This document shows, one piece after another, positions 27,539 through 59,000 of a stretch of 64,000 nucleotides of DNA. The first letter of the stretch is position 1. Every line of letters begins with the position of its first letter. Source of the DNA: a virus (lineage: Duplodnaviria > Heunggongvirae > Uroviricota > Caudoviricetes); the IMG/VR virus record IMGVR_UViG_3300028048_000076. One strand, given 5' to 3'. Both the position numbers and the translations under genes were made by a program. The notes below the pieces were generated by a model. That model was given only the letters and a program-made list of their open reading frames with translations. It searched no databases and was not told the origin of the DNA.

Positions 27539-27600
27539 AAAAACTATTGACAAAAATAAAATTCTTTGCTATGATTATAGTAAAGAAAGGAATGAGCGAT

Positions 27601-28989
27601 ATGAATTGTTATTATGGTACTCCGAAGCGTGGTTTTGAAATTGAAGTGCTTGTAGGATTACCTGCTAGTGGCAAAAGCACATATGCAAAGGCGAAGGAAA
27701 GCGAAGGGTATGTTGTTATTAGCAAAGATGATATTCGTCTAAAATGTGCTCGTAAGATGAATGATTTGGCATATGATGCGCCTGAAGGTTATTTTAAACC
27801 GTCCGAATTGCATCATTTCAGCAAAGTATGCAATGTAATCATTAATGATATTTGTGATAGTATTGTAAAATGGATAGCAAATAAATCGTTTTATGAAAAC
27901 GATTTAAATCGTAAGAGTCTGCACGAGTATACAGACGAAGAATATGAAGCCATACAAAAAGTATATTCGGAATACCTTAATCAGGTGTATAAAGCAAAGC
28001 ATGGTGTAATTTTTGATGCTACGTATTATACAAAGAAATCTCGTGTAATGTTTCCTGCGAAATTCAAGGATTGTGGTGTAAAACTCATTGCTCGTTATTT
28101 TGATTGCACTTTGGAAGAAGCTATCAAAGGTAATGAAGAGCGAAAGCAGTATAAAACGCTTTACAATGGCAAAGAATATGATGGTAGGCGAGTACCTGAT
28201 GATACATTGAGAAACATGTATAACAACCTCACTTTGCCAAGTGTAGAAGAAGGTTTTCATGTAGTCGTTGAAAACAAGCCGTGTTGTACAAAAATCAATG
28301 GTGATAAGTTGGTTCAGATGTATTATAACTTTGATAATTATTCTGAAGATGAAATTGCAGATATTTTTCCGAATGACTATTTCAAACAGTGCATCAATTT
28401 TAACCAATGTAATAGCCATCATACGCTTACCTTATCACAGCACATGTACCATTCTGCAAAATATGTTAAAGAGCATGGTGGTAATTTGACTACATTTATT
28501 GCGGCATTATTGCATGATGTAGGTAAGGCTGATACGAAAGGTTTATATGGTCGGTTAAATCGTGAATTCAACGGTTATAAGAATAATAAGGAATTGGAGA
28601 TTGTTGGTGAAGACGAAGTTTTTCATTGCGTAGACCCTTTTTCTAAGCATAAAATTGATGTACCGATGGATTATCTTGATGTAGATAGGGATTGTCACTA
28701 TTATAATCATCATGTAGTTTCAGCATTAAAGGCATGGCAAATGTTGAAAGGAATGTGTGATGAAAGAATGGCAAAAGATGTGTATAATCTCATTTATCAT
28801 CATATGGCAATACCTTTCAAATCAGATGATATTTCAACGAAAGCCTTGAATAAGATTAAGAAGTATTTAGGGGTTGAAGGGTTACATAATTTGGCATTGA
28901 TTAGGGAAGCTGATTTGTATGCAAAAGATTTGACCCCTCCAAATATCCCTGAATTAGTTACCTCAATTAAAAATTATCAATACATTTAA
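27601..28989 (+). CDS. Polynucleotide kinase (P-loop) fused to an HD phosphohydrolase
   Basis: VGLPASGKSTYAK, VIFDAT, RRVPDD; SHHTLTLSQHM, ALLHDVGK, YYNHHVVSA, EADL. Confidence 0.85.
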   Translation: MNCYYGTPKRGFEIEVLVGLPASGKSTYAKAKESEGYVVISKDDIRLKCARKMNDLAYDAPEGYFKPSELHHFSKVCNVIINDICDSIVKWIANKSFYENDLNRKSLHEYTDEEYEAIQKVYSEYLNQVYKAKHGVIFDATYYTKKSRVMFPAKFKDCGVKLIARYFDCTLEEAIKGNEERKQYKTLYNGKEYDGRRVPDDTLRNMYNNLTLPSVEEGFHVVVENKPCCTKINGDKLVQMYYNFDNYSEDEIADIFPNDYFKQCINFNQCNSHHTLTLSQHMYHSAKYVKEHGGNLTTFIAALLHDVGKADTKGLYGRLNREFNGYKNNKELEIVGEDEVFHCVDPFSKHKIDVPMDYLDVDRDCHYYNHHVVSALKAWQMLKGMCDERMAKDVYNLIYHHMAIPFKSDDISTKALNKIKKYLGVEGLHNLALIREADLYAKDLTPPNIPELVTSIKNYQYI

Positions 28990-31246: not shown

Positions 31247-31283
31247 AGGACACCGATTTAATATTTGTTAATTGGTGATAGTA

Positions 31284-32231
31284 ATGGAAAAAAGACGAGA
31301 TATGAAATCATACATTTGTGCAAAGCCAAGAAGGATTGCGGAAATTGAGATATTTAATGGGTGTAATGCAAAATGTGTGGTTTGTCCAAGAGGTTTAGGG
31401 TTAATGTCTAACCCTTGTACCACTATGGATTTTGAATTATATAAAAAGATTGTTGATAAATGCGCTGATTTAAAAGTGGAAGGTGTTTCTTTGTTTAGTT
31501 GGGGCGACCCCTTATTGAACAAAGATTTACCTAAATACTGTGAATATGCGCACAACAAAATGGAAGTGTATTTATCTTCCAATTTGAATATGAACGCTGA
31601 TTTTGAAAAATTCTTACCTCATATAAATAGTATGAGTATTTCAGTAAGTGGATTTAAACAGGAAACTTATGAAATCAACCATAGAGGATTGAATATTGAG
31701 AAGGTAAAAAAGAATTTAAGAATCATTGAAAGTGTTTTAGCCAAAATGGAAAAAGCCGATAGACCATATATAGAATTGAAATGGTTTGACTACGACTACA
31801 ATAAAGGCGAATTAGACATGTGGCGTGAATTTTTGGATTTAAGTTTAATCAACATTTATATCATTAAAGGTAATTATAATCCAATCGAAAATCGAGAAAA
31901 GATTGCAAAAGGTCATACATTTACGAATGATGATGAATTTATGGGGCGAGTTTGGATGTCAGGTTATCGTGATATGAATAAGATTGATTTGCGATATTGC
32001 AACTATATTCATAAATTTGCTATTGATGTTCAAGGGCGATTGTTATTGTGTTGTGAACCTATGTATGATGAACGTATGGTAATTGGAGATTTCTTAAAAG
32101 ATGACATTTATGAAATGCAATTAAAAAAACTACATCATAAACAATGTTTGTGCTGTGAGGTTTGGAATGAACAGGTTAATCTTTTAAGAAAACATGAAAT
32201 TGAAGCTATTAAAAATAAGACATTTCTGTAA
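31284..32231 (+). CDS. Radical SAM protein with SPASM/twitch-like C-terminus
   Basis: CNAKCVVC, SWGDPLL, CNY...AIDVQGRLLLCC, CLCC. Confidence 0.85.
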   Translation: MEKRRDMKSYICAKPRRIAEIEIFNGCNAKCVVCPRGLGLMSNPCTTMDFELYKKIVDKCADLKVEGVSLFSWGDPLLNKDLPKYCEYAHNKMEVYLSSNLNMNADFEKFLPHINSMSISVSGFKQETYEINHRGLNIEKVKKNLRIIESVLAKMEKADRPYIELKWFDYDYNKGELDMWREFLDLSLINIYIIKGNYNPIENREKIAKGHTFTNDDEFMGRVWMSGYRDMNKIDLRYCNYIHKFAIDVQGRLLLCCEPMYDERMVIGDFLKDDIYEMQLKKLHHKQCLCCEVWNEQVNLLRKHEIEAIKNKTFL

Positions 32232-32345: not shown

Positions 32346-34322
32346 ATGACAAAATATTCGCAGTTAGAGTTTGCAACTGCAATGTTGGGCTTGTTTAAGG
32401 CACTTCCTTGTGTAGATGAAATGTCTGAGCCTGTAAATCTTAATGATTCTGTAAAGATGGATTTTGTTCGCAAAGGTCTTATTTTATCTGATAAAGTCAT
32501 GCACCTTAAAATGCTGAAAAGCAGAGATATTCACTATGCAATTATCAGTAAAATGGGTCAATCGGCTGCGAAATTCAACAATACATTTTTTGAAAATATT
32601 GATAAGATTAGTTCTATGAAAGATGAAGAATATTATTTTCATCAGATTTTGAACTATCTCAGTTTCAATTTGGCAGATATGGGTCTTATTGATAATAGTG
32701 AGATTTATGTGCCGAACGAGAAAATTGGTATTTCTGAGGATATTCCTCCGTATCATTTGACTGTTGTGCAGGCAATGACCAAAGAGGAAACTAAAGAACG
32801 TATTGAAAAACTTTTGTATACAGGTGTAGCTTTGAAAGAAGAAACTGTATCGAAGATTTTCACTGTTAGTGATTGCTTCGGCTTTACTGATGAACTCGAT
32901 GCTGACAAGGTAAAGAATAAGGAAGCACAGCTTACCCTTTATAAACGTACAAATACAGTACCAAAGAATCCTGACTTCTTTGTACGCTATCTGTACTACC
33001 TTGCAACAGGTTCTACTATGCTTGTAAAGAGCAAACGTACTTATAAAATGTTGAACGATACATTGTGCTATAGCTCGTTAGTATCAAATGATATTGCAGG
33101 TGCATTGCGTAAGTATGTTAGCGATTATGGTTGCGAAACTCTTGCAAAAGCGTTTTATCGCAATAAGAAATTGCTTCTTCTCTTTAAAACTAAAGAAACT
33201 GCATACATTATCAATCGTACTCGCCGTTTGGCAGATAAGTACAAGAAAGCTCCGAAAGTCGGTGTTCTTGATAGATTGTCCGAACTCACTATGAAAGATT
33301 GGGATGATTTTGTTGCTGAAGTGGCTAAACTTAATGTATTTAAGAAAGTTGCTTTGATTAACTACATCATGAATCAGCATAGTGGCAATACAGATAGCTT
33401 GTATTTCATTCGTAATGGTAGAGTATTCTTCCGTGAGAATTACAGCGGTGGCAAGCCTAATATGCGATTCTTACAGCATCTCATTGAGAGTGTTGTGGAA
33501 GAAATGTCTCCTATTGTTGCAGGTAAGAAATTCTATATCCCACAGGGTATTGAATATGCTTTCCCTGTTTCTGAGAAGAAGTTCATTGGTGGCATTCCAT
33601 TCAATTCGAAGTTTACTTTGGAACGTAAGGGTGATGTACTCTTCGGTATTCATTGGTACAACTACGATAATGGTACGAAACACGGTAAAAGAACTGACCT
33701 TGACCTCCATATTACATCTGTATATGGTGAACGTATGGGTTGGAATAGCTATTATCGAGACAGTCAGCGTAGCACCTATTTTACAGGTGATATGACAGAT
33801 GCTCCTCGCAATGAAGGTGGTGCTTCTGAGTTGATGTATTTCACAAAGAATGCAAAACCGAATATGTATTCTGTAGCGATAAACAACTTTACCAACAATA
33901 ATTATCCGTTCCCATTCTCGTTGATTGTAAGCAATGCTGTCAATTATGAGGATGATGATAAGAGTGCTGTGGAAATTTGCAAAGATGCGTTTGTTAACAA
34001 CACTTGCAATTACATGACAGTGAATAATTATCTGAAGTCTGCAAACAATACTATGGGTTATTTCATTTTGAATGAAGATACCGCAGAGTTTGTATTTACA
34101 GATATGCAGGTTGGTAAATGTGTTGTACCGAATTCCATCGACTTCGATACCAAGATGATGAAATATATTTCTACTTATAGCGATACCGTTGTAAAACTGA
34201 AAGATGTTTTGGAATGGTGCAAGGCAGAAATTGTAGATGAACCTGTTGAAGGTTGCGTAAATCTTGATTATCGTGAGCTTGGCGAAACCACAATTCTTGA
34301 TGCTTTCTGCAAAAAGGATTGA
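32346..34322 (+). CDS. Large phage protein with TerD-like C-terminal beta domain
   Basis: FGIHW..RTDLDLH..GWNS..FTGDMTDAP..GASE. Confidence 0.55.
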   Translation: MTKYSQLEFATAMLGLFKALPCVDEMSEPVNLNDSVKMDFVRKGLILSDKVMHLKMLKSRDIHYAIISKMGQSAAKFNNTFFENIDKISSMKDEEYYFHQILNYLSFNLADMGLIDNSEIYVPNEKIGISEDIPPYHLTVVQAMTKEETKERIEKLLYTGVALKEETVSKIFTVSDCFGFTDELDADKVKNKEAQLTLYKRTNTVPKNPDFFVRYLYYLATGSTMLVKSKRTYKMLNDTLCYSSLVSNDIAGALRKYVSDYGCETLAKAFYRNKKLLLLFKTKETAYIINRTRRLADKYKKAPKVGVLDRLSELTMKDWDDFVAEVAKLNVFKKVALINYIMNQHSGNTDSLYFIRNGRVFFRENYSGGKPNMRFLQHLIESVVEEMSPIVAGKKFYIPQGIEYAFPVSEKKFIGGIPFNSKFTLERKGDVLFGIHWYNYDNGTKHGKRTDLDLHITSVYGERMGWNSYYRDSQRSTYFTGDMTDAPRNEGGASELMYFTKNAKPNMYSVAINNFTNNNYPFPFSLIVSNAVNYEDDDKSAVEICKDAFVNNTCNYMTVNNYLKSANNTMGYFILNEDTAEFVFTDMQVGKCVVPNSIDFDTKMMKYISTYSDTVVKLKDVLEWCKAEIVDEPVEGCVNLDYRELGETTILDAFCKKD

Positions 34323-34410
34323 TTTGATAGACCGCTTCGGCGGTCTATTTTTTTACAAAATTATTGACAAAATATACGAAATAAATTATAATAAACATGA
34401 GGTGATTAGA

Positions 34411-35361
34411 ATGGAGCAGAATGTAAAAGATGAATTTTATAAGCATTATAGCGAAAAAGTGCCTAACATTTGCTATTTAACGTTGGCAGGTAGTAAATCA
34501 TATGGTACAAATAATGAAAACTCTGATACAGATATTCGAGGGTTTTACCTTGAAACAAAAGAACAGTTGTTTGGACTAACTAAATATTCTACAGAATATA
34601 CGGATAGTGAAAATGATACTGTATTGTATTCATTTAAGAAGTTCTTGCATTTGTTGAGTAATTGTAATCCTAATGTAATTGAATTGCTTGGTACGAGAAA
34701 CGAAGATGTATTGTATATGACAGCATTATCTAGGGAAATGCGAATGAATGCTGAAATGTTTTTATCCAAACGAGCATATGTAACGTTTGGCGGTTATGCA
34801 GTGCAGCAGTTGCGTAGATTGCAGAACGCTTTGAGTCGCACTGACAATAAATTGAAGGAAGAACAGCTTTTAAAAACATTAAATCAGCAGATTGTTGAAA
34901 ATGTAGATGAATTATCAGCTTTGGGAAAATACGAATTACATATTGATGAAGAATTGAAAATTTCTGCAAATGTAAAAGATATATCTCTTAGAGATTTTTT
35001 GAATTCAAATGCTATTTTGAATAATACTATGCGTAATTTTGATAAAATTGGGCATAGGAATAACAAAAAAGACGAAAATCATTTGAATAAACATGCCATG
35101 CATTTGATTAGATTATATTATATGGGTATTGATATTCTTAAAAATGGTGTTATTAACACTTATCGTGAAAAAGAACACGATTTATTGATGACAATTCGTA
35201 ATGGCGAAATGTCATTTGATAAAGTTTTTGAAATGAGAGATAAACTTGAAGTAGAACTCCAAAAAGCATATGAAGAAAGTAAATTGCCTGAAACTGCTGA
35301 TATGAATAAAATTAATAAGTTCTGCATTGATGTATTAAATACGAATTTGAGGTGGGAATGA
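34411..35361 (+). CDS. DNA polymerase beta-superfamily nucleotidyltransferase (Nuc-transf/RlaP-like)
   Basis: LAGSKSYGTNNENSDTDIRG, NPNVIELL, KHAMHLIRL. Confidence 0.85.
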   Translation: MEQNVKDEFYKHYSEKVPNICYLTLAGSKSYGTNNENSDTDIRGFYLETKEQLFGLTKYSTEYTDSENDTVLYSFKKFLHLLSNCNPNVIELLGTRNEDVLYMTALSREMRMNAEMFLSKRAYVTFGGYAVQQLRRLQNALSRTDNKLKEEQLLKTLNQQIVENVDELSALGKYELHIDEELKISANVKDISLRDFLNSNAILNNTMRNFDKIGHRNNKKDENHLNKHAMHLIRLYYMGIDILKNGVINTYREKEHDLLMTIRNGEMSFDKVFEMRDKLEVELQKAYEESKLPETADMNKINKFCIDVLNTNLRWE

Positions 35362-35741
35362 TGGCTAAAATTGTTGTTGCAGGTGGGAGAACATATACAA
35401 ATACAGGCATGGTTTTTATTTGTTTGGAAGATATTGTTCAAAAAGATGATGTAATTATTTCAGGTCATGCTAAAGGCGTAGATATGATGGGAGAATTTTA
35501 TGCCCAAAAGAACAATTTAGTTTGTGAAATCTATCCTGCGGAATGGGACAAATATGGAAGAAGTGCAGGCCCTAGACGTAATGAGAAAATGGCACAGATT
35601 GCAGATAAGGTAGTTGTATTTTGGGACTTCAAATCTCGTGGTACAAAAAACATGATTGATATGGCTAAAAAATATAAGAAAGAGTTGTTCATCTTTGATT
35701 ATTTTGGCAATTTAAAACAACATTTTTTATTCAATGATTAA
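35358..35741 (+). CDS. SLOG-family (DUF2493) protein
   Basis: VAGGR, ISGHAKGVD, AEWDKYGRSAGPRRN, SRGTKNMI. Confidence 0.85.
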   Translation: MMAKIVVAGGRTYTNTGMVFICLEDIVQKDDVIISGHAKGVDMMGEFYAQKNNLVCEIYPAEWDKYGRSAGPRRNEKMAQIADKVVVFWDFKSRGTKNMIDMAKKYKKELFIFDYFGNLKQHFLFND

Positions 35742-36718: not shown

Positions 36719-37063
36719 ATGACTATGAAAGATTTTTTCAAAAAGATGTTTGATGAAGCTGATGATAGAAATAAGGCACAGATTGCGTATATTATATCTC
36801 ATTTTGTTAATAAAGATGTAACTATGATTTTAACAGATGAAGATAGTTTGACAAAATTCATTGATGCACATGATTCAATGCATAATAAAAAAATTGGGTT
36901 TTATGATGATGATGAATTTGTAGAAGTATTTGTCTGCGAACCTTATAAGTACGGAAGCGGAATGTTATTAACACCTACTGAAAAATTGAAAGAGTTTTTA
37001 GATACAATTGAATGTAAAAAACTTGTAACAGAATTTAGCTTTGCTTTGCTAAAAGAACATTAA
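36719..37063 (+). CDS. Hypothetical protein
   Basis: 114-aa ORF, AGGAGG RBS. Confidence 0.7.
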   Translation: MTMKDFFKKMFDEADDRNKAQIAYIISHFVNKDVTMILTDEDSLTKFIDAHDSMHNKKIGFYDDDEFVEVFVCEPYKYGSGMLLTPTEKLKEFLDTIECKKLVTEFSFALLKEH

Positions 37064-37076
37064 GAGGTGATAGATT

Positions 37077-37781
37077 GTGAAAAATAGAGTTCCTGTTAAT
37101 TTGAATATTATGGCAATAGATATAGGACTAAATTATCTTGGAGCTTGTACAACTACAACACATGACCACTTTTTGTTGGATGGACATTTGTTAAAATCCT
37201 GGTCATTTTTCTATTTGAAAAAAGTGCATGAATTAGAAAAGATTAATCCACAATCCAAAAGAATTTATAAATATAAACAAAAAAACCTTGCCTATATCAA
37301 TCAGTATATTTTCAAAGTAAACTCTTATCTGAAAAGATATTGTAAAAAAAACAAAATCCATACGATAATTATCGGTAAAATTCCGACAAAGAAGATTAAG
37401 AAAAATAATTTGTTCTTTAACATGGATTATGATTATCAAAATGTCAATTCGTATATAATGTCTTGTATGTACTATGAGACAATTGATATGGCGAAGCAGA
37501 ACAATATATCTGTTGTATTTATTGATGAAGCACATACATCCAATTGTAGTTTTTATGATAATGAATGGCTTATTTACAAACATCGTAAAGGGAGAGTTTG
37601 TAGAGGAAGATTTAAAACGTTTGATGGGCATAATGTCCATGCAGATATAAATGCTAGTTTAAATTTCTTTAGGAAAAATGAAAAATGTGAACGGTTATTG
37701 GATTTTGAAAAAGCAAAGGAAAGAATGCTTTTACATCCACGAAAAGTATTCTTTCCTGACAACAATCAAAAAAAATTATAA
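37077..37781 (+). CDS. Truncated TnpB (IS200/IS605 OrfB)-like RuvC-domain protein
   Basis: AIDIGLNYL, IDEAHTSNCSFYD, GRFKT, HADINASLN; N-terminal region missing and no tnpA nearby. Confidence 0.75.
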   Translation: MKNRVPVNLNIMAIDIGLNYLGACTTTTHDHFLLDGHLLKSWSFFYLKKVHELEKINPQSKRIYKYKQKNLAYINQYIFKVNSYLKRYCKKNKIHTIIIGKIPTKKIKKNNLFFNMDYDYQNVNSYIMSCMYYETIDMAKQNNISVVFIDEAHTSNCSFYDNEWLIYKHRKGRVCRGRFKTFDGHNVHADINASLNFFRKNEKCERLLDFEKAKERMLLHPRKVFFPDNNQKKL

Positions 37782-37796
37782 AAATATATTTTTGTG

Positions 37797-37830
37797 TTGA
37801 CAAATATATATGAAAAGTATATAATAAGAA
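37797..37830 (+). promoter_or_regulatory. Promoter of a small RNA
   Basis: TTGACA followed by TATAAT; no RBS or ORF downstream. Confidence 0.7.
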
Positions 37831-37914
37831 TGTAATCGCTGATGCGATTATACAGTTTGTTTTTCATTTTAACAATCTCCGACTTCTCACTTTGTTCGGT
37901 TGAAGTGGGGAGTT
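37831..37914 (+). ncRNA. Candidate ~85-nt small RNA
   Basis: 5' hairpin TAATCGC/GCGATTA, U-rich linker, 3' hairpin; bounded by a promoter and an HDV-like ribozyme. Confidence 0.5.
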
Positions 37915-37980
37915 GGCACTATGATACAGCCTTTCCGTGGCAGTGCTATAAGTAGTTCGCAAGAACGAAACCAATGTATC
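37915..37980 (+). ncRNA. HDV-like ribozyme 1
   Basis: P1 GGCACT/AGTGCT, P2 GATACA/TGTATC, P3 GCC/GGC, L3 TTTCCGT, P4 GTTC/GAAC, J4/2 GAAACCAA. Confidence 0.85.
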
Positions 37981-38068
37981 AATCCTTTCAATATATAAAT
38001 ATTGGAAAAATCTCCCACGCCTTTTCTACCTTTATCAACGTGGGAGATTTTTTTGTGAGGGACATGTA

Positions 38069-38404
38069 ATGATATATACAACATATTTTGCGAAAACAAA
38101 ATTAATTAAGGAAAAAGATAAACTTGTTTCAATAACAAGATTTCCTCCTAAAAATATTAGCATGAAATCATTTCAGAAATTAGCACCATCAAAAGAATTG
38201 TTAAATAAGTATAAAACAGATGGTGATAAAGAATATTTCATTAACGAATTCAATAAGTATTTAGATTCATTAGATGCAAAAGCATTTGCTGAATTTTTAG
38301 ATGGATATATTCTTTGTTGCTATGAAAAATCAACGGATTTTTGTCATAGACATTTAGTTGCAGAATGGTTTAGAAGAAATGGCTATGGTTGTGAGGAGTT
38401 ATAA
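38069..38404 (+). CDS. DUF488 family protein
   Basis: IYTTYF, LAPSKELL, LCCYEK..FCHRHLVAEW. Confidence 0.8.
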   Translation: MIYTTYFAKTKLIKEKDKLVSITRFPPKNISMKSFQKLAPSKELLNKYKTDGDKEYFINEFNKYLDSLDAKAFAEFLDGYILCCYEKSTDFCHRHLVAEWFRRNGYGCEEL

Positions 38405-38599
38405 TGAACGTTACATTGGTATATGGTGGCAAACGTATTAACGTGGAATCTGTGGATGCAATAATAAAACGTGAGCGTGGAGAAGAAGTATTCATTAACT
38501 TGCTGTCACATGATTCTCTTGACGTTGATAATTACATTAGTAAATTAAAAAGTTTAGACGGAACAAAATATAAAATGTGAAAATATTTTTGTAAAACGC

Positions 38600-38911
38600 T
38601 TGACAAATATGTACAAAGATTGTATAATAAGAATGTAGTTGAGAGATAAACAAATGACTTGAATGTTTCATTAATTCTTTCAATAAATTCTAAAAAAGTG
38701 CTTGACAAGATAAAGACATTTTGATATAATAATAAATGTCAAAAGCGAGAAATTAAATTGACTTGATTGTAACAATTAATTCTCGAAAATCTTAAAAAAA
38801 AGTGCTTGACAATAACATTGAAAAATGTTATAATAAAGAAGTCGATTGAGATTGAAATAAATCAAAATCACAAAAAAAGATGTTGACAAATTATCACAAA
38901 AGTGATATAAT
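38600..38911 (+). promoter_or_regulatory. Four tandem consensus sigma70 promoters driving the RNA cluster
   Basis: TTGACA at 38600, 38702, 38806 and 38883, each with TATAAT at 17 bp and an A-rich upstream tract. Confidence 0.85.
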
Positions 38912-38917
38912 AAAGAA

Positions 38918-39188
38918 GTCAGTTAAGGCGACCTACTCTCAACGGAGTAAAACAACAAGTAGTTGAGAGAATAAAAGTAAAGGATAGTACCACTTCTTAT
39001 ATTCATGCTATACATGATTTAGAAATAAGAGCCTGACTGATGGCGAAAGAGAATTCTTAGGAGTTATGACCCCTGTAGGACAAGGCATAACATTATCATC
39101 CGAATAAGGTTGCAGTCTTATGAAGGTGCTTAAAAAAAATTCGTTAGGTCTTTGAAGGTTATTTTTCCATTCTCTACCTTCAGAGATA
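38918..39188 (+). ncRNA. Unidentified ~270-nt structured RNA A
   Basis: No ORF; hairpins CTCTCAAC/GTTGAGAG, TTATG/CATAA, TCTTTGAAGGT/ACCTTCAGAGA; ends at a ribozyme cleavage site. Confidence 0.5.
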
Positions 39189-39260
39189 GCAATTCAATAA
39201 CACATACCGTCACGAGGTGAATTGTGTAATTAGTCAGAAATGATGAAACTAAATTGTGTG
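39189..39260 (+). ncRNA. HDV-like ribozyme 2
   Basis: P1 GCAATTC/GAATTGT, P2 ACACA/TGTGT, P3 ACC/GGT, L3 GTCACGA, P4 GTCA/TGAT, J4/2 GAAACTAA. Confidence 0.8.
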
Positions 39261-39271
39261 AAATTTAATAC

Positions 39272-39346
39272 TGCCCAATCGTCTAACGGTTAGGATGACA
39301 GACTTTGAATCTGTAGGTGTTGTTTCGACTACAACTTGGGCTGCCA
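39272..39346 (+). tRNA. tRNA-Gln(TTG)
   Basis: Cloverleaf, CT-TTG-AA loop, encoded CCA. Confidence 0.9.
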
Positions 39347-39419
39347 ATGATTTTTAAAACTTCAGACTTGATGTGAAAATATCGTTTCTTCCTGTTTTCT
39401 GAAGTTTTGAAATAAATTT

Positions 39420-39681
39420 GAATAATCTGCCTAACAATGGATTGATAATTGTCTTTTTAAGACATGGGCAGAAAAACGTTGCAAAAGCAATATAAATCCT
39501 AAGTCTTACAGAATCATGTGATGGCCTCCGAAAATCAATGATTTGTGTTTGAACTTCTACTAAAATTAGTAAGATAGGGACGAATTGCACTGCGAAAGCT
39601 GTATATCCCTGAATGTAACGCGCTGTATGTATCACATAACAGATGAAGTTGGGAGTACCCTATAGGAAACTATGGGGATAT
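39420..39681 (+). ncRNA. Unidentified ~260-nt structured RNA B
   Basis: Helices TCTGCCT/GGGCAGA, TGTCTT/AAGACA, AACTTC/GAAGTT, GGGA/TCCC, CCCTATAG/CTATGGGG; ends at a ribozyme cleavage site. The 5' end is approximate. Confidence 0.5.
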
Positions 39682-39758
39682 GACAATCAATTTTGCAAAC
39701 CTTCTCGTGGTGATTGTCGTAAGTATACATTTTTTGAAATGTAGAAACAAATTGCAAA
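39682..39758 (+). ncRNA. HDV-like ribozyme 3
   Basis: P1 GACAATC/GATTGTC, P2 TTTGCAA/TTGCAAA, P3 ACC/GGT, L3 TTCTCGT, P4 TACATTT/AAATGTA, J4/2 GAAACAAA. Confidence 0.85.
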
Positions 39759-39803
39759 TAAAACTGTAAACTATATGTATTTAATAGTTACCAAACAAAA
39801 ATG

Positions 39804-39942
39804 TTTTTGCATAAACAACTTCCTTTCAGTCTTGCAAAACTATTTTAGTTGTCGCAAAAATAAATATAAAAATTTAATAACGGCATAAATAGCTTCCTTT
39901 TGAAAAATTATTTATGGGAAAGTAATTTAGTTATCGCCGTTA
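39804..39942 (+). repeat. Anti-SD hairpin motif, copies a (39804-39860) and b (39878-39942)
   Basis: stem-ATAA-6bp-TCCTTT...TT-6bp-C-stem. Confidence 0.75.
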
Positions 39943-39948
39943 ATATAT

Positions 39949-40022
39949 GCACTTCTAGTTTAATGGTAAAACTTCGGTTTTGTAAACCGACAATATCAGT
40001 TCAATTCTGATGGGGTGCTCCA
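39949..40022 (+). tRNA. tRNA-Thr(TGT)
   Basis: Cloverleaf, TT-TGT-AA loop, CCA. Confidence 0.9.
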
Positions 40023-40027
40023 ATAAT

Positions 40028-40100
40028 GGCTCGTTGGTCTAGTGGTCTAGGACATTACTCTTTCAAGGTAGTAACAGCAGTTCAAATCTGCTACGAGTCA
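40028..40100 (+). tRNA. tRNA-Glu(TTC), no encoded CCA
   Basis: Cloverleaf, CT-TTC-AA loop; a ribozyme starts right after the discriminator. Confidence 0.9.
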
Positions 40101-40167
40101 GTCACTCAAAGCATTAGCCTTTACGTTGGCGAGTGACATAAGTAGGTTAACCGAAACTAATAATGCT
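40101..40167 (+). ncRNA. HDV-like (theta) ribozyme 4
   Basis: P1 GTCACTC/GAGTGAC, P2 AGCATTA/TAATGCT, P3 GCC/GGC, J4/2 GAAACTAA. Confidence 0.85.
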
Positions 40168-40170
40168 AAA

Positions 40171-40298
40171 AGTCTTGTGACGAAATAGGTAAACGTTATG
40201 TGTAACTTGACACAAACCTTGGCAGTGTGGTTCGATTCCACGATACAAGAATGGAGAAAGCAAGGGATAATGTAAGGTGCAAATCCTTACCAAGACTT
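40171..40298 (+). ncRNA. tRNA-like RNA with two T-arms
   Basis: Acceptor AGTCTTG/CAAGACT, D-arm, internal GTGGTTCGATTCCAC and terminal GTAAGGTGCAAATCCTTAC; no canonical 7-nt anticodon loop. Confidence 0.65.
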
Positions 40299-40390
40299 TT
40301 GTAATTAAAGATATTAAGCTAACATCTTCCCCACTTGTGAACCTGAGATGTAAAGATTGTACAGATATAGGATATAATCAGCTTCATAAT

Positions 40391-40465
40391 ACCTTGGGTG
40401 CGTGTAATGGTAACACGGCTAGACTGTGAATCTAGTAATATGGGTTCGAATCCCATCCCTCGGAC
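40391..40465 (+). tRNA. tRNA-His(GTG), mismatched acceptor stem, no CCA
   Basis: CT-GTG-AA loop, intact T-arm; acceptor CCTTGGG/CCCTCGG has two mismatches. Confidence 0.7.
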
Positions 40466-40537
40466 GGTTTTCTTAAACATCAACCTTCTCGTGGTGAAAA
40501 CTGTAAGTAATCATTTATGATAAAACTAATAGATGTT
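40466..40537 (+). ncRNA. HDV-like (theta) ribozyme 5
   Basis: P1 GGTTTTC/GAAAACT, P3 ACC/GGT, L3 TTCTCGT, P4 ATCAT/ATGAT, P2 AACATC/GATGTT. Confidence 0.85.
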
Positions 40538-40540
40538 AAA

Positions 40541-40608
40541 AAAAGACAAAAAGCACTTCCTTTTGCTAATGCGCCGATTTGTTAAATCGTTTTTAGTGCT
40601 CGTCTTTT
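40541..40608 (+). repeat. Anti-SD hairpin motif, copy c
   Basis: AAAGAC-AAAA-AGCACT-TCCTTT...AGTGCT-C-GTCTTT. Confidence 0.75.
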
Positions 40609-40613
40609 AAAAA

Positions 40614-40690
40614 GGCCCTATAGTTTAGTTGGTCAAAACATCGCCCTGTCACGGCGAAGACCATCGGTTCAAGTCCGATTAGGGTCGCCA
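40614..40690 (+). tRNA. tRNA-Asp(GTC)
   Basis: Cloverleaf, CT-GTC-AC loop, CCA. Confidence 0.92.
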
Positions 40691-40695
40691 AATAT

Positions 40696-40772
40696 GTGTC
40701 AGTAGCTCAGTTGGTAGTAGCAACAGACTTTTAATCTGTAGGTCGTGGATTCAAGTTCCACCTGACACACCA
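40696..40772 (+). tRNA. tRNA-Lys(TTT)
   Basis: Cloverleaf, CT-TTT-AA loop, CCA. Confidence 0.92.
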
Positions 40773-40778
40773 TATTAT

Positions 40779-40859
40779 TCCGCAGTGATGAAATGGTAGA
40801 CATGCTTGACTGTTAATCAAGTGCCGAAAGGCGTGTAGGTTCGAGTCCTACTTGCGGAG
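40779..40859 (+). tRNA. tRNA-Asn(GTT) with long variable arm, no CCA
   Basis: CT-GTT-AA loop, variable arm GCC-GAAA-GGC, G discriminator. Confidence 0.85.
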
Positions 40860-40931
40860 GTTATTCGATAACATCAACCTTTACGTGGTGAATAACATAA
40901 GTAATCATTTATGATGAAACTAATAGATGTT
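40860..40931 (+). ncRNA. HDV-like (theta) ribozyme 6
   Basis: P1 GTTATTC/GAATAAC, P3 ACC/GGT, L3 TTTACGT, P4 ATCAT/ATGAT, J4/2 GAAACTAA. Confidence 0.88.
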
Positions 40932-40935
40932 AAAA

Positions 40936-40990
40936 TAAAGACATAAAACACTTCCTTTTACAACAGGTGTTTGGTTAGTGTTCGTCTTTA
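40936..40990 (+). repeat. Anti-SD hairpin motif, copy d
   Basis: AAAGAC-ATAA-AACACT-TCCTTT...AGTGTT-C-GTCTTT. Confidence 0.75.
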
Positions 40991-40996
40991 AAAAAA

Positions 40997-41083
40997 GCGA
41001 GGATGGCGAAATCAGGCATACGCACAGAGTTTAAGCCTCTGCGGTTTTATACCATGTGGGTTCGACCCCCACTCTTCGCACCA
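40997..41083 (+). tRNA. tRNA-Leu(TAA)
   Basis: Class II cloverleaf, TT-TAA-GC loop, CCA. Confidence 0.9.
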
Positions 41084-41084
41084 T

Positions 41085-41168
41085 GCCCTTGTGCTGAAAT
41101 TGGCAGACAGGGTGCGCTCAAAACGCACTGATGGTAACATCGTACAGGTTCAAATCCTGTCAGGGGCA
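41085..41168 (+). tRNA. tRNA-Leu(CAA), no CCA
   Basis: Class II cloverleaf, CT-CAA-AA loop, A discriminator followed by a ribozyme. Confidence 0.9.
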
Positions 41169-41239
41169 GTTATCCAATAACATCAACCTTTACGTGGTGG
41201 ATAATATAAGTAATTCATAAGAATGAAACTAATGATGTT
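41169..41239 (+). ncRNA. HDV-like (theta) ribozyme 7
   Basis: P1 GTTATCC/GGATAAT, P2 AACATCA/TGATGTT, P3 ACC/GGT, P4 ATTC/GAAT. Confidence 0.88.
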
Positions 41240-41244
41240 AAATG

Positions 41245-41705
41245 CTTTGTGGAAATGGCAACTGATTTCAACGAAACAAACGTATTGTACCTTCGATTGA
41301 GATTACAGTTGAGAGTATTAAATCAAAGTAATCATGCTAGTACCCCATTTTGGACACACTAGGAATTTTGCTTAATGACTGTGGAGATTGATTATCGTAG
41401 AAGCAGTAAAACACCACACAAATTATGGGCTTTATTAAGGTTAGCGTCTTATGAAGTCGAATCGAATCCGAACTAAATCGTATAATCGCCCACACATAAC
41501 GCTAATGTGATGGAGAAATACGATGGAAGGCCCTTTTGGCACGAGGGTACGGATATGGTATGCAGAGAACTACAACCTGTCAGTGAGTTATCAGCTGCGA
41601 ATGTAGCCGTAGAATACCGCGAGAGCGTATCGAGGGAGAAGGCGAACTCTCGACGTTAGGTGTAAAATACGCAAGAGGTTATGATGCCACATAACTTCGT
41701 CTTTA
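41245..41705 (+). ncRNA. Candidate large ornate RNA (ROOL/GOLLD class)
   Basis: ~460 nt with no ORF, more GC-rich than its flanks, many helices (GGGC/GCCC, TTAGCGT/ACGCTAA, TCGAG/CTCGA, AGTTATG-type), inside the tRNA array. Confidence 0.45.
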
Positions 41706-41706
41706 T

Positions 41707-41797
41707 GGAGCAGTACCCAAGTGGTTATAAGGGAACAGTCTTGAAAACTGTGAGGTCGCAGTGATGCGGTGCGTGAGTTCGAATCTCACCTGCTCTT
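41707..41797 (+). tRNA. tRNA-Ser(TGA), no CCA
   Basis: Class II cloverleaf, CT-TGA-AA loop. Confidence 0.88.
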
Positions 41798-41798
41798 C

Positions 41799-41867
41799 GT
41801 TGTTCATTGTATCAGCCTTTTCGTGGCGAACAACATAAGTAATCAAAATGATGAAACCAATGATACT
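41799..41867 (+). ncRNA. HDV-like (theta) ribozyme 8
   Basis: P1 GTTGTTC/GAACAAC, P2 GTATCA/TGATAC, P3 GCC/GGC, L3 TTTTCGT, J4/2 GAAACCAA. Confidence 0.85.
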
Positions 41868-41883
41868 ATTAAATATAATTAAT

Positions 41884-41958
41884 GCGAATATAATTTAATG
41901 GTTAGAATCTCAGTCTTCCAAACTGATTGTGTCGGTTCGATTCCGACTATTCGCTCCA
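41884..41958 (+). tRNA. tRNA-Gly(TCC)
   Basis: CT-TCC-AA loop, U discriminator, CCA. Confidence 0.9.
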
Positions 41959-41962
41959 TAAT

Positions 41963-42049
41963 GGGTAGGTGTGATAAGCGGCGAAATCAGCGGACTGTAA
42001 ATCCGTGACACTAGAAACATCGAAGGTTCGAGTCCTTCCCTGCCCACCA
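41963..42049 (+). tRNA. tRNA-Tyr(GTA)
   Basis: CT-GTA-AA loop, long variable arm, CCA. Confidence 0.9.
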
Positions 42050-42128
42050 CGTTACCGAAGAGAAATTACTTTAACGTAGTGGTAACGTTAAGTATGTATT
42101 TTAACAATACAGAAACTAAAAATTTCTC
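42050..42128 (+). ncRNA. HDV-like (theta) ribozyme 9
   Basis: P1 CGTTACC/GGTAACG, P2 GAGAAATT/AATTTCTC, P3 ACT/AGT, L3 TTAACGT, P4 TGTATT/AATACA; starts right after CCA. Confidence 0.8.
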
Positions 42129-42282: not shown

Positions 42283-42417
42283 TTTTGGCATAAATAACTT
42301 CCTTTTTTTTACAGCTAAATGAAAAACACTTGTTTAGTTATCGCCAAAACAAGATTTCAAGTATGGCAAAAAATAGTTCCTTTTCTTATTTATCAGATAC
42401 TATAGAAATGCCGTTAT
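42283..42417 (+). repeat. Anti-SD hairpin motif, copies e (42283-42349) and f (42362-42417, degenerate)
   Basis: TTTTGGC-ATAA-ATAACT-TCCTTT...AGTTAT-C-GCCAAAA. Confidence 0.7.
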
Positions 42418-42958
42418 AACGGCATTTCACCATTACTATTCGCCATGCAAAAATAACGGGTCGTTGAAAAATTGCGAAAAAGCACAGCAATCTTCATTTT
42501 GTGATACCTCCCTTTCATAAGATATAAATACGGCATATATAGACTGTGTTAAGTAACAATGAAGTAAACTGCTAATAAGTGGAATGAACTGTGAGAAATC
42601 CTTAATGAATTAAATCCCTCTTACAATTACAATGTTGAATATCCCATAGAATGTGAATGTGGGTTTAAAATATTCGTTCAATTTTTAACTAAGGATTATA
42701 ATTGAAAAATAGTGAATGATGGATAAAGTTCATGTTGTTGTGAGTCTACACAAAATGGCAGTTTTGTGTAGTTAAATGTGTATTTGGGAATTTCGTTTAA
42801 ACACTTCTCGATAAGTCAAAGTTGTTTTTGATATTTTCAACTTTAAAATAAAAAAAATACATTTTCACAAAAAGGTTCGTGGTGTGTACCAACAAACCCT
42901 TTCTTTTAAAAAGAGTATTAGATAATCTAATACTCTTTTTTGATTATTACAATTATAG

Positions 42959-56042: not shown

Positions 56043-59000
56043 ATGGAAAAAGTAAGGAAACGAAATGGTAAATTAGTGGATTATGATTCACAGAAGATTT
56101 TTGATGCTATCAAGAAAGCAAATGCTGATTCTAAAGATAAGCGTATGAATAAAACAGCATTGTATCTTCTTGTGTCACAGGTAGAAGATGCATTTGAGGA
56201 TGTAAAAGCACCATCAGTAGAAAGTATTCAGGATTGCATTGAGAATTTGCTTATGAAATCTAATTGGGTTCATACAGCTAAATCTTACATTGTATATCGT
56301 AACGAACATGCAAAGATTCGTGATACTCATGCTGATTTGCTCAAACAGTTAAATGAAGTCCTTTTCAGTAAAGGCGAAGATTCTGATTTGAAGCGTAGCA
56401 ATGCAAATATCAAATCTGATTCAACAATGGGTGCAATGTTGCAGGTTGGAACGACTACAACAAATTATTTAAATGATAATTTTATCATTCCTAAAAGATA
56501 TATTGATGCCCATAGAGCAGGTTACATCCATATCCATAAGTAATATTGTGGCTTTACATGGTGACATGTACTGAAAAACTAGGTGAACCTACAAATGTAG
56601 GGTGTATGAATGACGATTAGTAATTGTAGGAAATGACAATTAACATTCATGCTAACAGGGAAAGTGCGATTTCACCAATCCTGTGGGAAGTATCTTTACT
56701 AATGAAGATAAACCTCCATCGACTATCGAACACATAGCACAAAAGAAAAATTTGTGTAAAGAAGTAAGTAGAGTACATTGTGAGTGAAATTCTCATAGTG
56801 GAAGTGCCTAGTACCTAATATTTGGTAATAGAATATTAGGTGATGATATAGTCAGCACATACTTTGAAATAAGTATGTGTGGATAAAGATTTTTCAAATT
56901 TGACATTTAACTGTCTCCAGGTGGACTTGCAGAAAACTTTTAAGGATGGATTTAAGATTGGGAGTTCGTTTATTCGTGAACCACAGTCAATCCGTTCTGC
57001 CGCTGCTTTAGCTTGCATAATTTTGCAATCTTCACAAAATGACATGTTTAAGTAAAAATTGAACACTTATAAGGTGACTTATAAGAACAAACTCCACGTA
57101 GACCTATCTATTATAGGGTGTCATATTAACGAATAGGAATTGCAGGAAATGGCAATTAGTAATATGGCTAACAGGGAATGTTAACAAGAATTAAAAATGT
57201 CCAACTTGTTAAAGAATCCTGTGCTACAATTTTTATTACACTTTAAATCTTTATAAAAACTGAAGATAAAAAGTGTAATAAAAATTAAGTCAACAGAGTA
57301 TCGAAAAGATAGTGACCGCAAAAGGGTTTCAGAGTTGTCAACTGATTAATCACGAATAACTGAGTAGAGTAAGATAACTATTAATACGTTATTTGAAAAT
57401 GTGGGTACTTATAATTGAAAATATAAGTATGAGATGTATTCGGTGTCATATTACAAAAGTATGACATGGGTGGACAAAGTATTCAGGACTTCGATAGAGC
57501 AATGGCTATTGGTGTTCGTAGAACATTTAAAAAAGAACTCTGCACTGCATTACAGGAAGTTCTTGATTACAATGATATTGAAAATGTTGATGAAGTTGTA
57601 TTGAATATTCCTGAAAATATTCTTTTGACATATAAAAATGTTGATAAGATGGAAGAATTGACTTTATATTTAACAAGCGTAATTAAAGACAGTGCAATTG
57701 CAGAAAAATGTGTTTCAAAAGCATATAAAATTGCTTGTAAACGCACAGAAAAAGAAACCCATCAAGCTATGGAAGCTGTAATTTTCAATTTAAACAGTAT
57801 GCATAGCCGTGCAGGTCAAATGAGGGCCTGAATCTATAGAAATATAGATGTAGAATAAAGACAAATCGGTGAAGGCTAAAATATAAATTTTATTTATATT
57901 ATGCTAATACCGAGCTAACCGAAATCAACGGTAGTGTAACGCATAGGAATTGAGCGATATGATAGCAACAATATTCCCACGAGGTCTTTACCCCTAACAC
58001 GTAAAGGTGAGGGTGAAAATATATGCTGAACAAGATGTGAATTGACACATAGTATTTAGTCATATAAAAGGGTGGCTAAAGATGAAGGAAACTTCTTGAA
58101 GTGAATGATAAAAAACTTTCACGATAACAAATTGTCGCAGGTAGAATGAGTGCCTGTTAATTGTAGAAATATAATTATAAGTACGGAGCAAAATCGGTAG
58201 AGACTAAAGATAAAACTAATTTGTTTTAAAAAAAAGTTTCGTTTATGTTAATACCGAGGTAAGTAAATCGTTAAAAAGGTTTGCCACCGTAGAGCATAGA
58301 GGTTGAACCTGTAAATAGCAGAATATAATACCTCCAAGAGTGTTCCGCACATTAAGTTATAGACTTAATCTTTATATTAGCAAATATAAAGCCTAACGTT
58401 AAACGAGGGTGAAAATATATGCCAAGCTGAGTTGGAATTGACCAACTGATGAAAATAGGGGAAACCCTCAGAGGTGTAGATAAAAAGCTACACGATAATA
58501 ACAATCTGACCTTTTAGTAGTTTAAATTTCGGTCTTGATACTTCTCCTGAGGGAAGATTAGCAATGGAAAAACTTCTTCTTGCACAGGAAGCAGGTTTAG
58601 GACATGGAGAAATTTCAATCTTTCCAATTACGATTTTCCGTTTGAAGGAAGGAATTTCTTACAATCCTGAAGACCCAAATTATGATTTATTTAAACTCGC
58701 AATGCGTGTTAGTGCGAAACGTTTGTTCCCTAATTTTGAGAACCAGGATGCTCCATATAATATGAAGTATTATGACCCAAATGATTATCGCACAGAAATT
58801 GCAACTATGGGTAAGTGTAAATGTAGCCCATGTAAAACCGTTTGAACCCTGCCAAGGGGTGTGAGAATTTATATTCTTGCTAACGGATAGGACTTCATAG
58901 AAGTTGAGTCCGTGCTAAGTAGCAGAAATGCTTAAATGTGTATCGACCATCCGTGATGAATGTAGCGGAGTAGGGATAGAGATAGGCACTATCCCCAAGA

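Follow-up and report, generated by a model that had tools for sequence, protein, structure and literature searches.

Nine Predicted Ribozymes in a Phage RNA Cluster

The window analysed here is the whole 64,000-nucleotide (nt) stretch of IMG/VR virus record IMGVR_UViG_3300028048_000076 (Caudoviricetes). Twelve tRNA genes lie on its + strand, and in the same region, between 37915 and 42128, that strand carries nine elements of 67-79 nt. Their sequences make it very probable that these are hepatitis delta virus (HDV)-like self-cleaving ribozymes of a large rumen phage, located in its transcription units for tRNAs and non-coding RNAs. The gene context is phage-like, and similar DNA occurs in bovine and pig gut metagenomes and in bovine gut metatranscriptomes. 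A preliminary description of this DNA had counted nine copies over exactly this span, and each of them could be parsed there. The predicted ribozymes, designated A to I, are as follows (scores are those of covariance model R1, described below; lengths of helices are in base pairs, bp).

37915-37981, + strand: ribozyme A, after a promoter-driven small RNA of ~80 nt (~37834-37914); P1 of 6 bp; P1.1 U-A; 57.7 bits
39189-39260, + strand: ribozyme B, degenerate; ends a ~265-nt non-tRNA RNA and lies 11 nt before tRNA-Gln; 70.3 bits
39682-39758, + strand: ribozyme C, ends a structured, highly abundant ~335-nt RNA (39347-39681) located after tRNA-Gln; P1.1 C-G
40101-40167, + strand: ribozyme D, +1 directly after discriminator A40100 of a CCA-less tRNA-Glu; L3 of 8 nt
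40466-40537, + strand: ribozyme E, after a CCA-less tRNA-His, one C (40465) past the discriminator; AAAA in place of GAAA
40860-40931, + strand: ribozyme F, +1 directly after the discriminator of a CCA-less tRNA-Asn
41169-41239, + strand: ribozyme G, +1 directly after the discriminator of a CCA-less tRNA-Leu(CAA); 87.8 bits
41799-41867, + strand: ribozyme H, after a CCA-less tRNA-Ser(UGA), one C (41798) past the discriminator
42050-42128, + strand: ribozyme I, +1 is C, directly after the encoded CCA of tRNA-Tyr; P1.1 A-U

The full HDV nested double pseudoknot can be drawn for all nine copies, with the helix order P1-P2-P3-P3'-P1'-P4-P2' and P1.1 placed between L3 and the nucleotides that follow P1' (9/9). 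The layout runs through P1 (6-7 bp), J1/2 (1-5 nt), P2 (5-8 bp), P3 (3 bp), L3 (7 nt; 8 in copy D), P3' and P1', and continues with a variable nucleotide, UAAGUA, and a P4 hairpin 8-18 nt long, after which come GAAA, CNAA, and P2'; copy B has UAAUUA for UAAGUA, and copy E has AAAA for GAAA. Pairing of P1 and P3 is complete in 9/9 copies despite their sequence differences; the P4 hairpin has 3-7 bp, and 21-30 nt lie between P1.1 and the putative catalytic C. The preliminary description had fitted all copies to one common layout. Its helix order and P1/P3 pairing stand for every copy, and the layout has to be relaxed for the 8-nt L3 of copy D, for the 5-bp P2 of copy B, which pairs in a shifted register, and for copies E and F, which have 2 additional nt between CUAA and P2'. 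A G·U wobble closes the base of P1 in four of the nine copies only, and position +1 is not always G, being C in copy I. The P2 and P4 helices are nearly the same in E, F, and G, for which reason we read these three copies as recent duplicates of tRNA-ribozyme modules; the other copies differ from one another with compensating changes. Eight of the nine copies appear intact.

Covariation, the P1.1 Pair, and Relatives

Covariation was counted on a model alignment of 92 matches, equal to 74 distinct sequences, in which P1, P3, and P4 are fitted to the model and P1.1 lies outside it. Paired cells amount to 92.3%, versus 58.8% in shuffled alignments (0/500 shuffles as high) and 36-50% when the partners are slid. 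Every P1 pair and every P4 pair shows two-sided changes, and P3 is 100% paired across the 74 distinct sequences. P2 is only 68% paired in the same alignment, which we attribute to an alignment artefact. A custom parser was used beside the alignment count because alignments mis-register P1: MAFFT alignments of the nine copies shift the P1 register where J1/2 lengths vary, and the model-based alignment still misplaces A and I. This custom parse of 70 unique sequences agrees with the alignment count, and by it P2 is 94-100% paired.

The HDV P1.1 pair, in which position 3 of L3 meets the base that follows P1', had been reported as U-A five times, C-G three times, and A-U once among the nine copies, and this tally is exact. 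Across the 74 distinct sequences the same position holds UA in 51, CG in 20, GC in 2, and AU in 1, with none unpaired, such that all four Watson-Crick types occur without exception. At the second position of P1.1, U faces U in 9/9 copies and in 69/70 unique sequences. In a 2026 crystal structure of a phage HDV ribozyme, P1.1 likewise consists of a U:A pair on a cis Watson-Crick U:U; that RNA is a fast cleaver, and its C-to-U mutant is dead (PMC13635239). A single P1.1 pair that occurs in four Watson-Crick types would provide a natural test set for the P1.1 stability that the HDV fold needs.

The partial pattern TAAGTA..RAAACNAA matches the window 9 times, versus 0.55 expected. Eight of these matches correspond to the copies with TAAGTA, and the one at 58178 is unrelated; copy B is missed owing to its TAATTA. 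Covariance model R1, built from the nine copies and run over both strands of the 64-kb window with filters off, finds exactly the nine copies at 54-88 bits, with the next best hit at 14 bits. R1 recovers its own training copies by construction, and the real test lies with relatives from other DNA. When IMG/VR was scanned with a pattern, 112 stretches were obtained, nearly all of which score 34-76 bits with R1. The same pattern in 596 Gb of bacterial and archaeal genomes gave 63 stretches, only 9 of them confirmed by R1, on contigs of gut Bacteroidota, Bacillota, Cloacimonadota, and unclassified bins; these contigs may themselves be phage DNA. The many IMG/VR loci, taken with the few confirmed genome matches, indicate a phage-borne family of well over 100 members. 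When the tRNA region and one ribozyme were compared with named phages by blastn, only tRNA matches and noise were found.

Four residues never change among 70 unique sequences (the nine copies and 61 relatives): C5 and G6 of L3, the C of J4/2, and the last A of CNAA. The catalytic-C position is conserved in 70/70 and is followed by NAA or NGA in all, a count that is partly required by the retrieval pattern. L3 reads UUNNCGU in the family, with CG in 70/70 and the first U in 65/70; the counts at position +1 are 37 for G, 25 for C, 7 for A, and 1 for U. Helix order, the L3 CG, and the J4/2 C thus bear out the original HDV-like assignment in the nine copies and the 61 unique relatives alike. The suggestion that an A-rich J1.1/4 and an extended J4/2 define a subtype has also held up, since the UAAGUA...GAAA-CNAA module recurs at >100 IMG/VR loci. 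Natural variants of the module are found among the unique sequences (GAAA to AAAA in four, UAAGUA to UGAGUA in three, UAAGUA to CAAGUA in one); they fit a module that is tolerant of change and still constrained, in a set most of whose sequences were retrieved with patterns containing these words.

A large subgroup of the same subtype is carried by IMG/VR contigs of metagenome 3300045988 (L004, L010, L011, L022, L029, and L034). In these, P1 begins CUCUCAA or CUCCUAA and +1 is C. The elements sit 160-280 nt downstream of suppressor tRNAs with anticodons CUA or UUA, with unrecognised RNA in between, and from these tRNAs some carriers of the subtype are probably recoded phages.

Placement at tRNA 3' Ends

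Six of the nine predicted cut sites fall 0-1 nt from the 3' end of a tRNA, and the remaining three, those of copies A, B, and C, end non-tRNA RNAs of ~80 nt (promoter-driven), ~265 nt, and ~335 nt (structured). The tRNA genes are arranged in runs, each closed by one ribozyme.

39949-42049, + strand: [Thr-Glu]-D, [His]-E, [Asp-Lys-Asn]-F, [Leu UAA-Leu CAA]-G, [Ser]-H, [Gly-Tyr]-I

Within a run the tRNAs are 1-6 nt apart. The inner tRNAs encode CCA and the last one does not, apart from tRNA-Tyr. A ribozyme follows 5/5 CCA-less tRNAs, versus 1/7 CCA-encoding ones (hypergeometric p = 7/924 = 0.008). The preliminary description had six copies starting at tRNA 3' ends (Glu, His, Asn, Leu-CAA, Ser, and Tyr after its CCA), and the register is now seen to be directly after the discriminator for Glu, Asn, and Leu-CAA, one C later for His and Ser, and after CCA for Tyr. 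It had also noted no suppressor tRNA, in agreement with the 12 tRNAs of the window, none of which is a suppressor. In the wider family, 17/63 other unique members abut a tRNA called by ARAGORN, and 46/63 have no recognisable adjoining tRNA.

The tRNA-His (40392-40465, + strand) has two adjacent mismatches, U·C and U·U, in the middle of its acceptor stem in the ARAGORN drawing, and no obvious G-1:C73 pair is seen there.

Two genes upstream of the cluster are candidates for healing of the RNA ends.

27547-28989, + strand: polynucleotide-kinase-like protein (AAA_33) with an HD domain
34264-35361, + strand: RlaP "RNA repair pathway" nucleotidyltransferase

The RNA-repair-type gene cluster near the tRNAs also contains a SLOG (YspA-like) protein (35352-35741, + strand). 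A radical SAM enzyme is encoded as well (31272-32231).

Metatranscriptome Contigs

The transcript evidence consists of contigs of rumen metatranscriptomes. Nineteen contigs could be placed in full, and uncovered stretches were not counted as evidence. Seven of the 19 start 12-21 nt after a predicted cut site, versus ~0.4 expected at random, and 6/9 sites are represented: A at +21 (37936), B at +19 (39208), E at +14 (40480), F at +13 and +19 (40873 and 40879), G at +12 (41181), and I at +15 (42065). At site G the binned depth rises >60-fold, from 1.9/0.74 to 129.5/83.7, and ribozyme G lies within the 5' end of the abundant RNA downstream (contig 41181-41644, depth 101). The RNA upstream of ribozyme C is the most abundant in the region, with contig depths of 894 and 336.

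Proposed Function and Alternatives

We propose that each copy folds during transcription into the nested double pseudoknot, with P1, P1.1, and P4 in one stack and P2 and P3 in another. The J4/2 cytosine, together with a metal ion near the U...CG of L3, would then cleave just 5' of P1. The upstream RNA, whether the last tRNA of a run or one of the three non-tRNA RNAs, would be freed with a 2',3'-cyclic phosphate, and the ribozyme would be kept on the 5'-hydroxyl end of the downstream RNA, to be removed by RNase P where a tRNA follows. The CCA-less tRNAs would need end healing and CCA addition, which the kinase-like/HD protein and RlaP, or host enzymes, could carry out.

Several observations weigh against this reading or qualify it. 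Copy B, which may be dead, differs from the consensus in several parts of the core: it has UAAUUA, an L3 of GUCACGA that begins with G, and a P2 that is limited to 5 bp and pairs out of the usual register. No copy reaches an Rfam gathering score (RF02682, 17.9-25.8 bits versus 44; RF01787, 19.4 versus 37). The P1 and P2 registers of the custom parse were picked by best pairing. Since UAAGUA and GAAAC were both part of the retrieval patterns, their conservation among the IMG/VR sequences is to some extent circular. A looser IMG/VR pattern without UAAGUA removes this circularity only in part, AAAC being still required; it yielded at least 38 unique sequences after strict filtering, and the UAAGUA/(G/A)AAA module is present in 37/38 unique sequences among the matches listed (seven parse shifts corrected). 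As to the transcripts, neither the ends nor the strand of an RNA can be proven from contigs, and the +12 to +21 interval was picked after viewing the data; with an interval of 0 to +30 the count is 8/19, still far above chance. A low-depth contig (39903-40146, depth 2.4) spans cut site D, and therefore some transcripts are uncut or DNA was present in the library. Contigs upstream of ribozyme C end at 39651-39653 in three studies, ~30 nt before the predicted cut. This early stop could be a technical shortfall at the terminal hairpin or a different true end; the shortfall is plausible because contig starts likewise fail to reach the end of tRNA-Gln, by 20-33 nt, and the final 23 nt are taken up by an 8-bp hairpin with a GNRA cap.

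Alternatively, the copies may be real ribozymes whose main role is to punctuate operons. They would insulate and stabilise the downstream RNAs through a 5'-hydroxyl and a compact 5' fold and would also set the 3' ends of abundant non-tRNA RNAs, with the tRNAs as one use of several. Three of the nine copies in the window, and the 46/63 other unique members already mentioned, do not stand beside a recognisable tRNA, and the two most abundant RNAs of the region are non-tRNA species bounded by ribozymes C and G, with G retained on the 5' end of one of them. We consider this a possible but not a probable account, in that tRNA 3'-end formation is favoured as a selected function here by the exact register with discriminators or CCA and by an association with CCA-less tRNAs that has no exception; ARAGORN may also overlook unusual tRNAs at the other loci, and the two roles are compatible.

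That the elements are conserved structured RNAs without self-cleavage (sites of protein binding or RNase entry, or signals for transcription pausing or termination, that merely look like the HDV fold) would agree with the lack of an Rfam family at threshold, a +1 that is not always G, the G·U wobble at the base of P1 in 4/9 copies, and the contig that crosses site D. We hold this to be improbable: all positions of the HDV catalytic core are invariant, all five helices covary, so precise a double pseudoknot with a correctly placed C is hard to account for otherwise, and close functional analogues cleave in vitro (PMC10879173, PMC13635239). The near-identical P2 and P4 of E, F, and G, which point to recent module duplication, could mark selfish or recently duplicated repeats that travel with tRNA genes and have no selected function in the phage. 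The other copies vary in P1, P2, and P4 with compensatory changes, however, P1 is adapted at each site, and the family is conserved over many unrelated phage contigs, all of which make such a functionless repeat family very improbable.

The junction around P4 invites a structural proposal. AGUA beside the 5' strand of P4 and GAA beside its 3' strand fit, in the right orientation, the bulged-G (sarcin-ricin/loop E) consensus. We propose that AGUA/GAA may form a sarcin-ricin-like bulged-G module that extends the P4 stack to the catalytic C; four non-canonical layers would then carry that stack up to P1.1 and place the cytosine. A point against the proposal is that its whole basis is identity in sequence to the AGUA/GAA consensus. 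More speculatively still, UAAGUA-P4-GAAA-C might define an undescribed, widespread HDV-like class in which the bulged-G module replaces the P1.1-P4 junction and could dock a phage or host protein that times cleavage; such a class might act as a general maker of RNA ends, for tRNAs and abundant RNAs, that feeds a phage healing and CCA pathway.

Non-tRNA RNAs and Neighbouring Elements

Two ribozyme-bounded non-coding RNAs stand out in depth from their surroundings (2-20).

39347-39681, + strand: depth 894/336; the ~335-nt RNA, fold z = -3.1, ending in a GNRA-capped hairpin
41240-41706, + strand: depth 100-180

Neither matches an Rfam family at E ≤ 10, and blastn of the intergenic RNAs of the window against all fetched loci gave no match. 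We considered the 39347-39681 RNA as a tRNA with a group I intron and rejected the idea, as no T-arm-like 3' exon is present. A minus-strand open reading frame (ORF) of 93 amino acids (39354-39635) overlaps this abundant RNA. A terminator-like hairpin lies 3' of ribozyme A.

A second repeated structured element, which is co-oriented with neighbouring genes, has six copies in the window; three of them lie just upstream of tRNAs.

39808-39856, + strand: second repeated element
39882-39938, + strand: second repeated element
40545-40604, + strand: second repeated element
40940-40986, + strand: second repeated element
42287-42345, + strand: second repeated element
42365-42444, + strand: second repeated element

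Its layout is 3-bp stem - A(U/A)AA - 5-bp stem - UUCCUUU(U) - variable insert - UUA - 5-bp partner - C - 3-bp partner, with covariation in each of the two stems. Further occurrences are L237:6362-6487(-), L242:3758-3891(-), and L254:1501-1603(-). In two IMG/VR contigs besides the present one the element forms tandem pairs, with no tRNA or ribozyme close by. Its complement resembles a ribosome-binding site followed by ATG. No Rfam match to this element was found.

The remaining features of the region are an RNA domain, promoters, and a transposon-related ORF.

40168-40300, + strand: RNA domain between ribozyme D and tRNA-His
38560-38925, + strand, and 37799-37827: five consensus promoters (TTGACA-17-TATAAT) in close tandem order, preceding the RNA cluster
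36719-37781, + strand: 234-amino-acid ORF with TnpB similarity, preceded by a 114-amino-acid ORF in another frame

The ends of the RNA domain form a closing 11-bp stem around four inner hairpins, two of which are T-arm-like with 7-nt loops (UUCGAUU and UGCAAAU). The domain may represent a module akin to a tRNA or a Y RNA; neither ARAGORN nor Rfam recognised it. Several of the tandem promoters share an initial transcribed sequence, with short transcripts in between. The 234-amino-acid ORF holds only the C-terminal RuvC and zinc-finger parts of TnpB, with weak OrfB_IS605 and Cas12f-like TNB matches, both under the curated Pfam cut-offs, and the locus probably represents a TnpB element that is broken. 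Between its end and the promoter of the small RNA terminated by ribozyme A lie 18 nt.

Comparison with Known Ribozymes

At gathering thresholds, Rfam matched only tRNAs in the window. Our own R1 finds the nine copies alone, and the Rfam HDV models, a comparison that had been suggested as a check, stay below their gathering scores. RF02682 is the best Rfam match and covers five copies over its full length (model positions 1-74; copy F at 25.7 bits); the Rfam HDV models represent other subtypes. Helix order, an L3 of the UCUaCGU type, a real P4, and CUAA in J4/2 are common to the nine copies and RF02682 (drz-Fpra-1 of Faecalibacterium prausnitzii); the junction after P1.1 differs, being GGCAA/G in RF02682 and UAAGUA/GAAA here. 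The "Ackermannviridae" phage HDV ribozyme resembles our copies in its U:A stacked on a cis Watson-Crick U:U, a likeness that concerns P1.1 and on our side is predicted from sequences; no genomic context or function was assigned there (PMC13635239). The Ackermannviridae genomes CBA120 and Vi01 gave no match to R1, RF02682, or RF00094.

The closest functional counterparts are the theta ribozymes, minimal HDV-like RNAs associated with tRNAs in gut Caudoviricetes, which cleave in vitro; HDV-like maturation of phage tRNA 3' ends has already been published (Kienbeck et al. 2024, PMC10879173). Such ribozyme-made ends were reported only in 2024, with a deliberately narrow search motif, and only 4.5% of the theta-associated tRNAs encode CCA, with nucleotidyltransferase and RNA-ligase genes enriched (PMC10879173). 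The present copies share with theta ribozymes the HDV double pseudoknot, a cut that abuts the 3' ends of phage tRNAs of many isotypes, mostly CCA-less ones, a home in animal-gut phages with nucleotidyltransferase/RNA-repair genes, and the occurrence of non-tRNA copies. The cut site lies within ±5 nt of a tRNA 3' end, as is asked of theta ribozymes, in 6/9 copies, and the phage is one of the animal gut. The window differs from theta phages in having no suppressor tRNA.

The structural differences are larger. In the parts of the published lists that we searched, from which the motif was taken, theta sequences read P1|J|P2|P3|U|CC|NCGY|P3'|P1'|GG|4-8 nt|CUAA|P2', with G at +1 (PMC10879173). Theta P1.1 accordingly has 2 bp (CC/GG, UC/GA, or GC/GC in those entries), whereas the nine copies have one Watson-Crick pair and a U·U; placed in the theta scheme they show UU, UC, or UA opposite AU, GU, or UU. 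The 4-8 nt of the listed theta P4 slot compare with 21-30 nt here, made up of AAGUA, a real P4 hairpin, and GAAA, and the copies are in that respect not of the minimal form. Position +1 is G in the listed theta sequences and G, C, or A across the present family. The nine copies fall outside the theta motif because their full P4 is flanked by UAAGUA and GAAA; no AAGUA-type entry was found in the searched parts of the theta lists, and text searches of the literature found no description of the subtype.

As judged from their sequences, the copies form a structural subtype in which one freely covarying P1.1 pair rests on an invariant U·U and a full P4 is joined by UAAGUA and GAAA. The phenomenon is thereby broader than the theta set in structure, with a full-P4 subtype that has its own junction, a +1 beyond G, and >100 IMG/VR loci missed by both the theta motif and the Rfam thresholds. 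It is broader in scale, with nine copies punctuating one RNA operon, and in targets, since three RNAs other than tRNAs are included, of which two are very abundant in rumen metatranscriptomes. With a covariance model of the subtype, more phage ribozymes would be counted and RNA operons of phages would be better annotated. Our results suggest that the function is the known, theta-type processing of phage RNA 3' ends, and that the structure which serves it is a distinct, widespread, and apparently undescribed variant.

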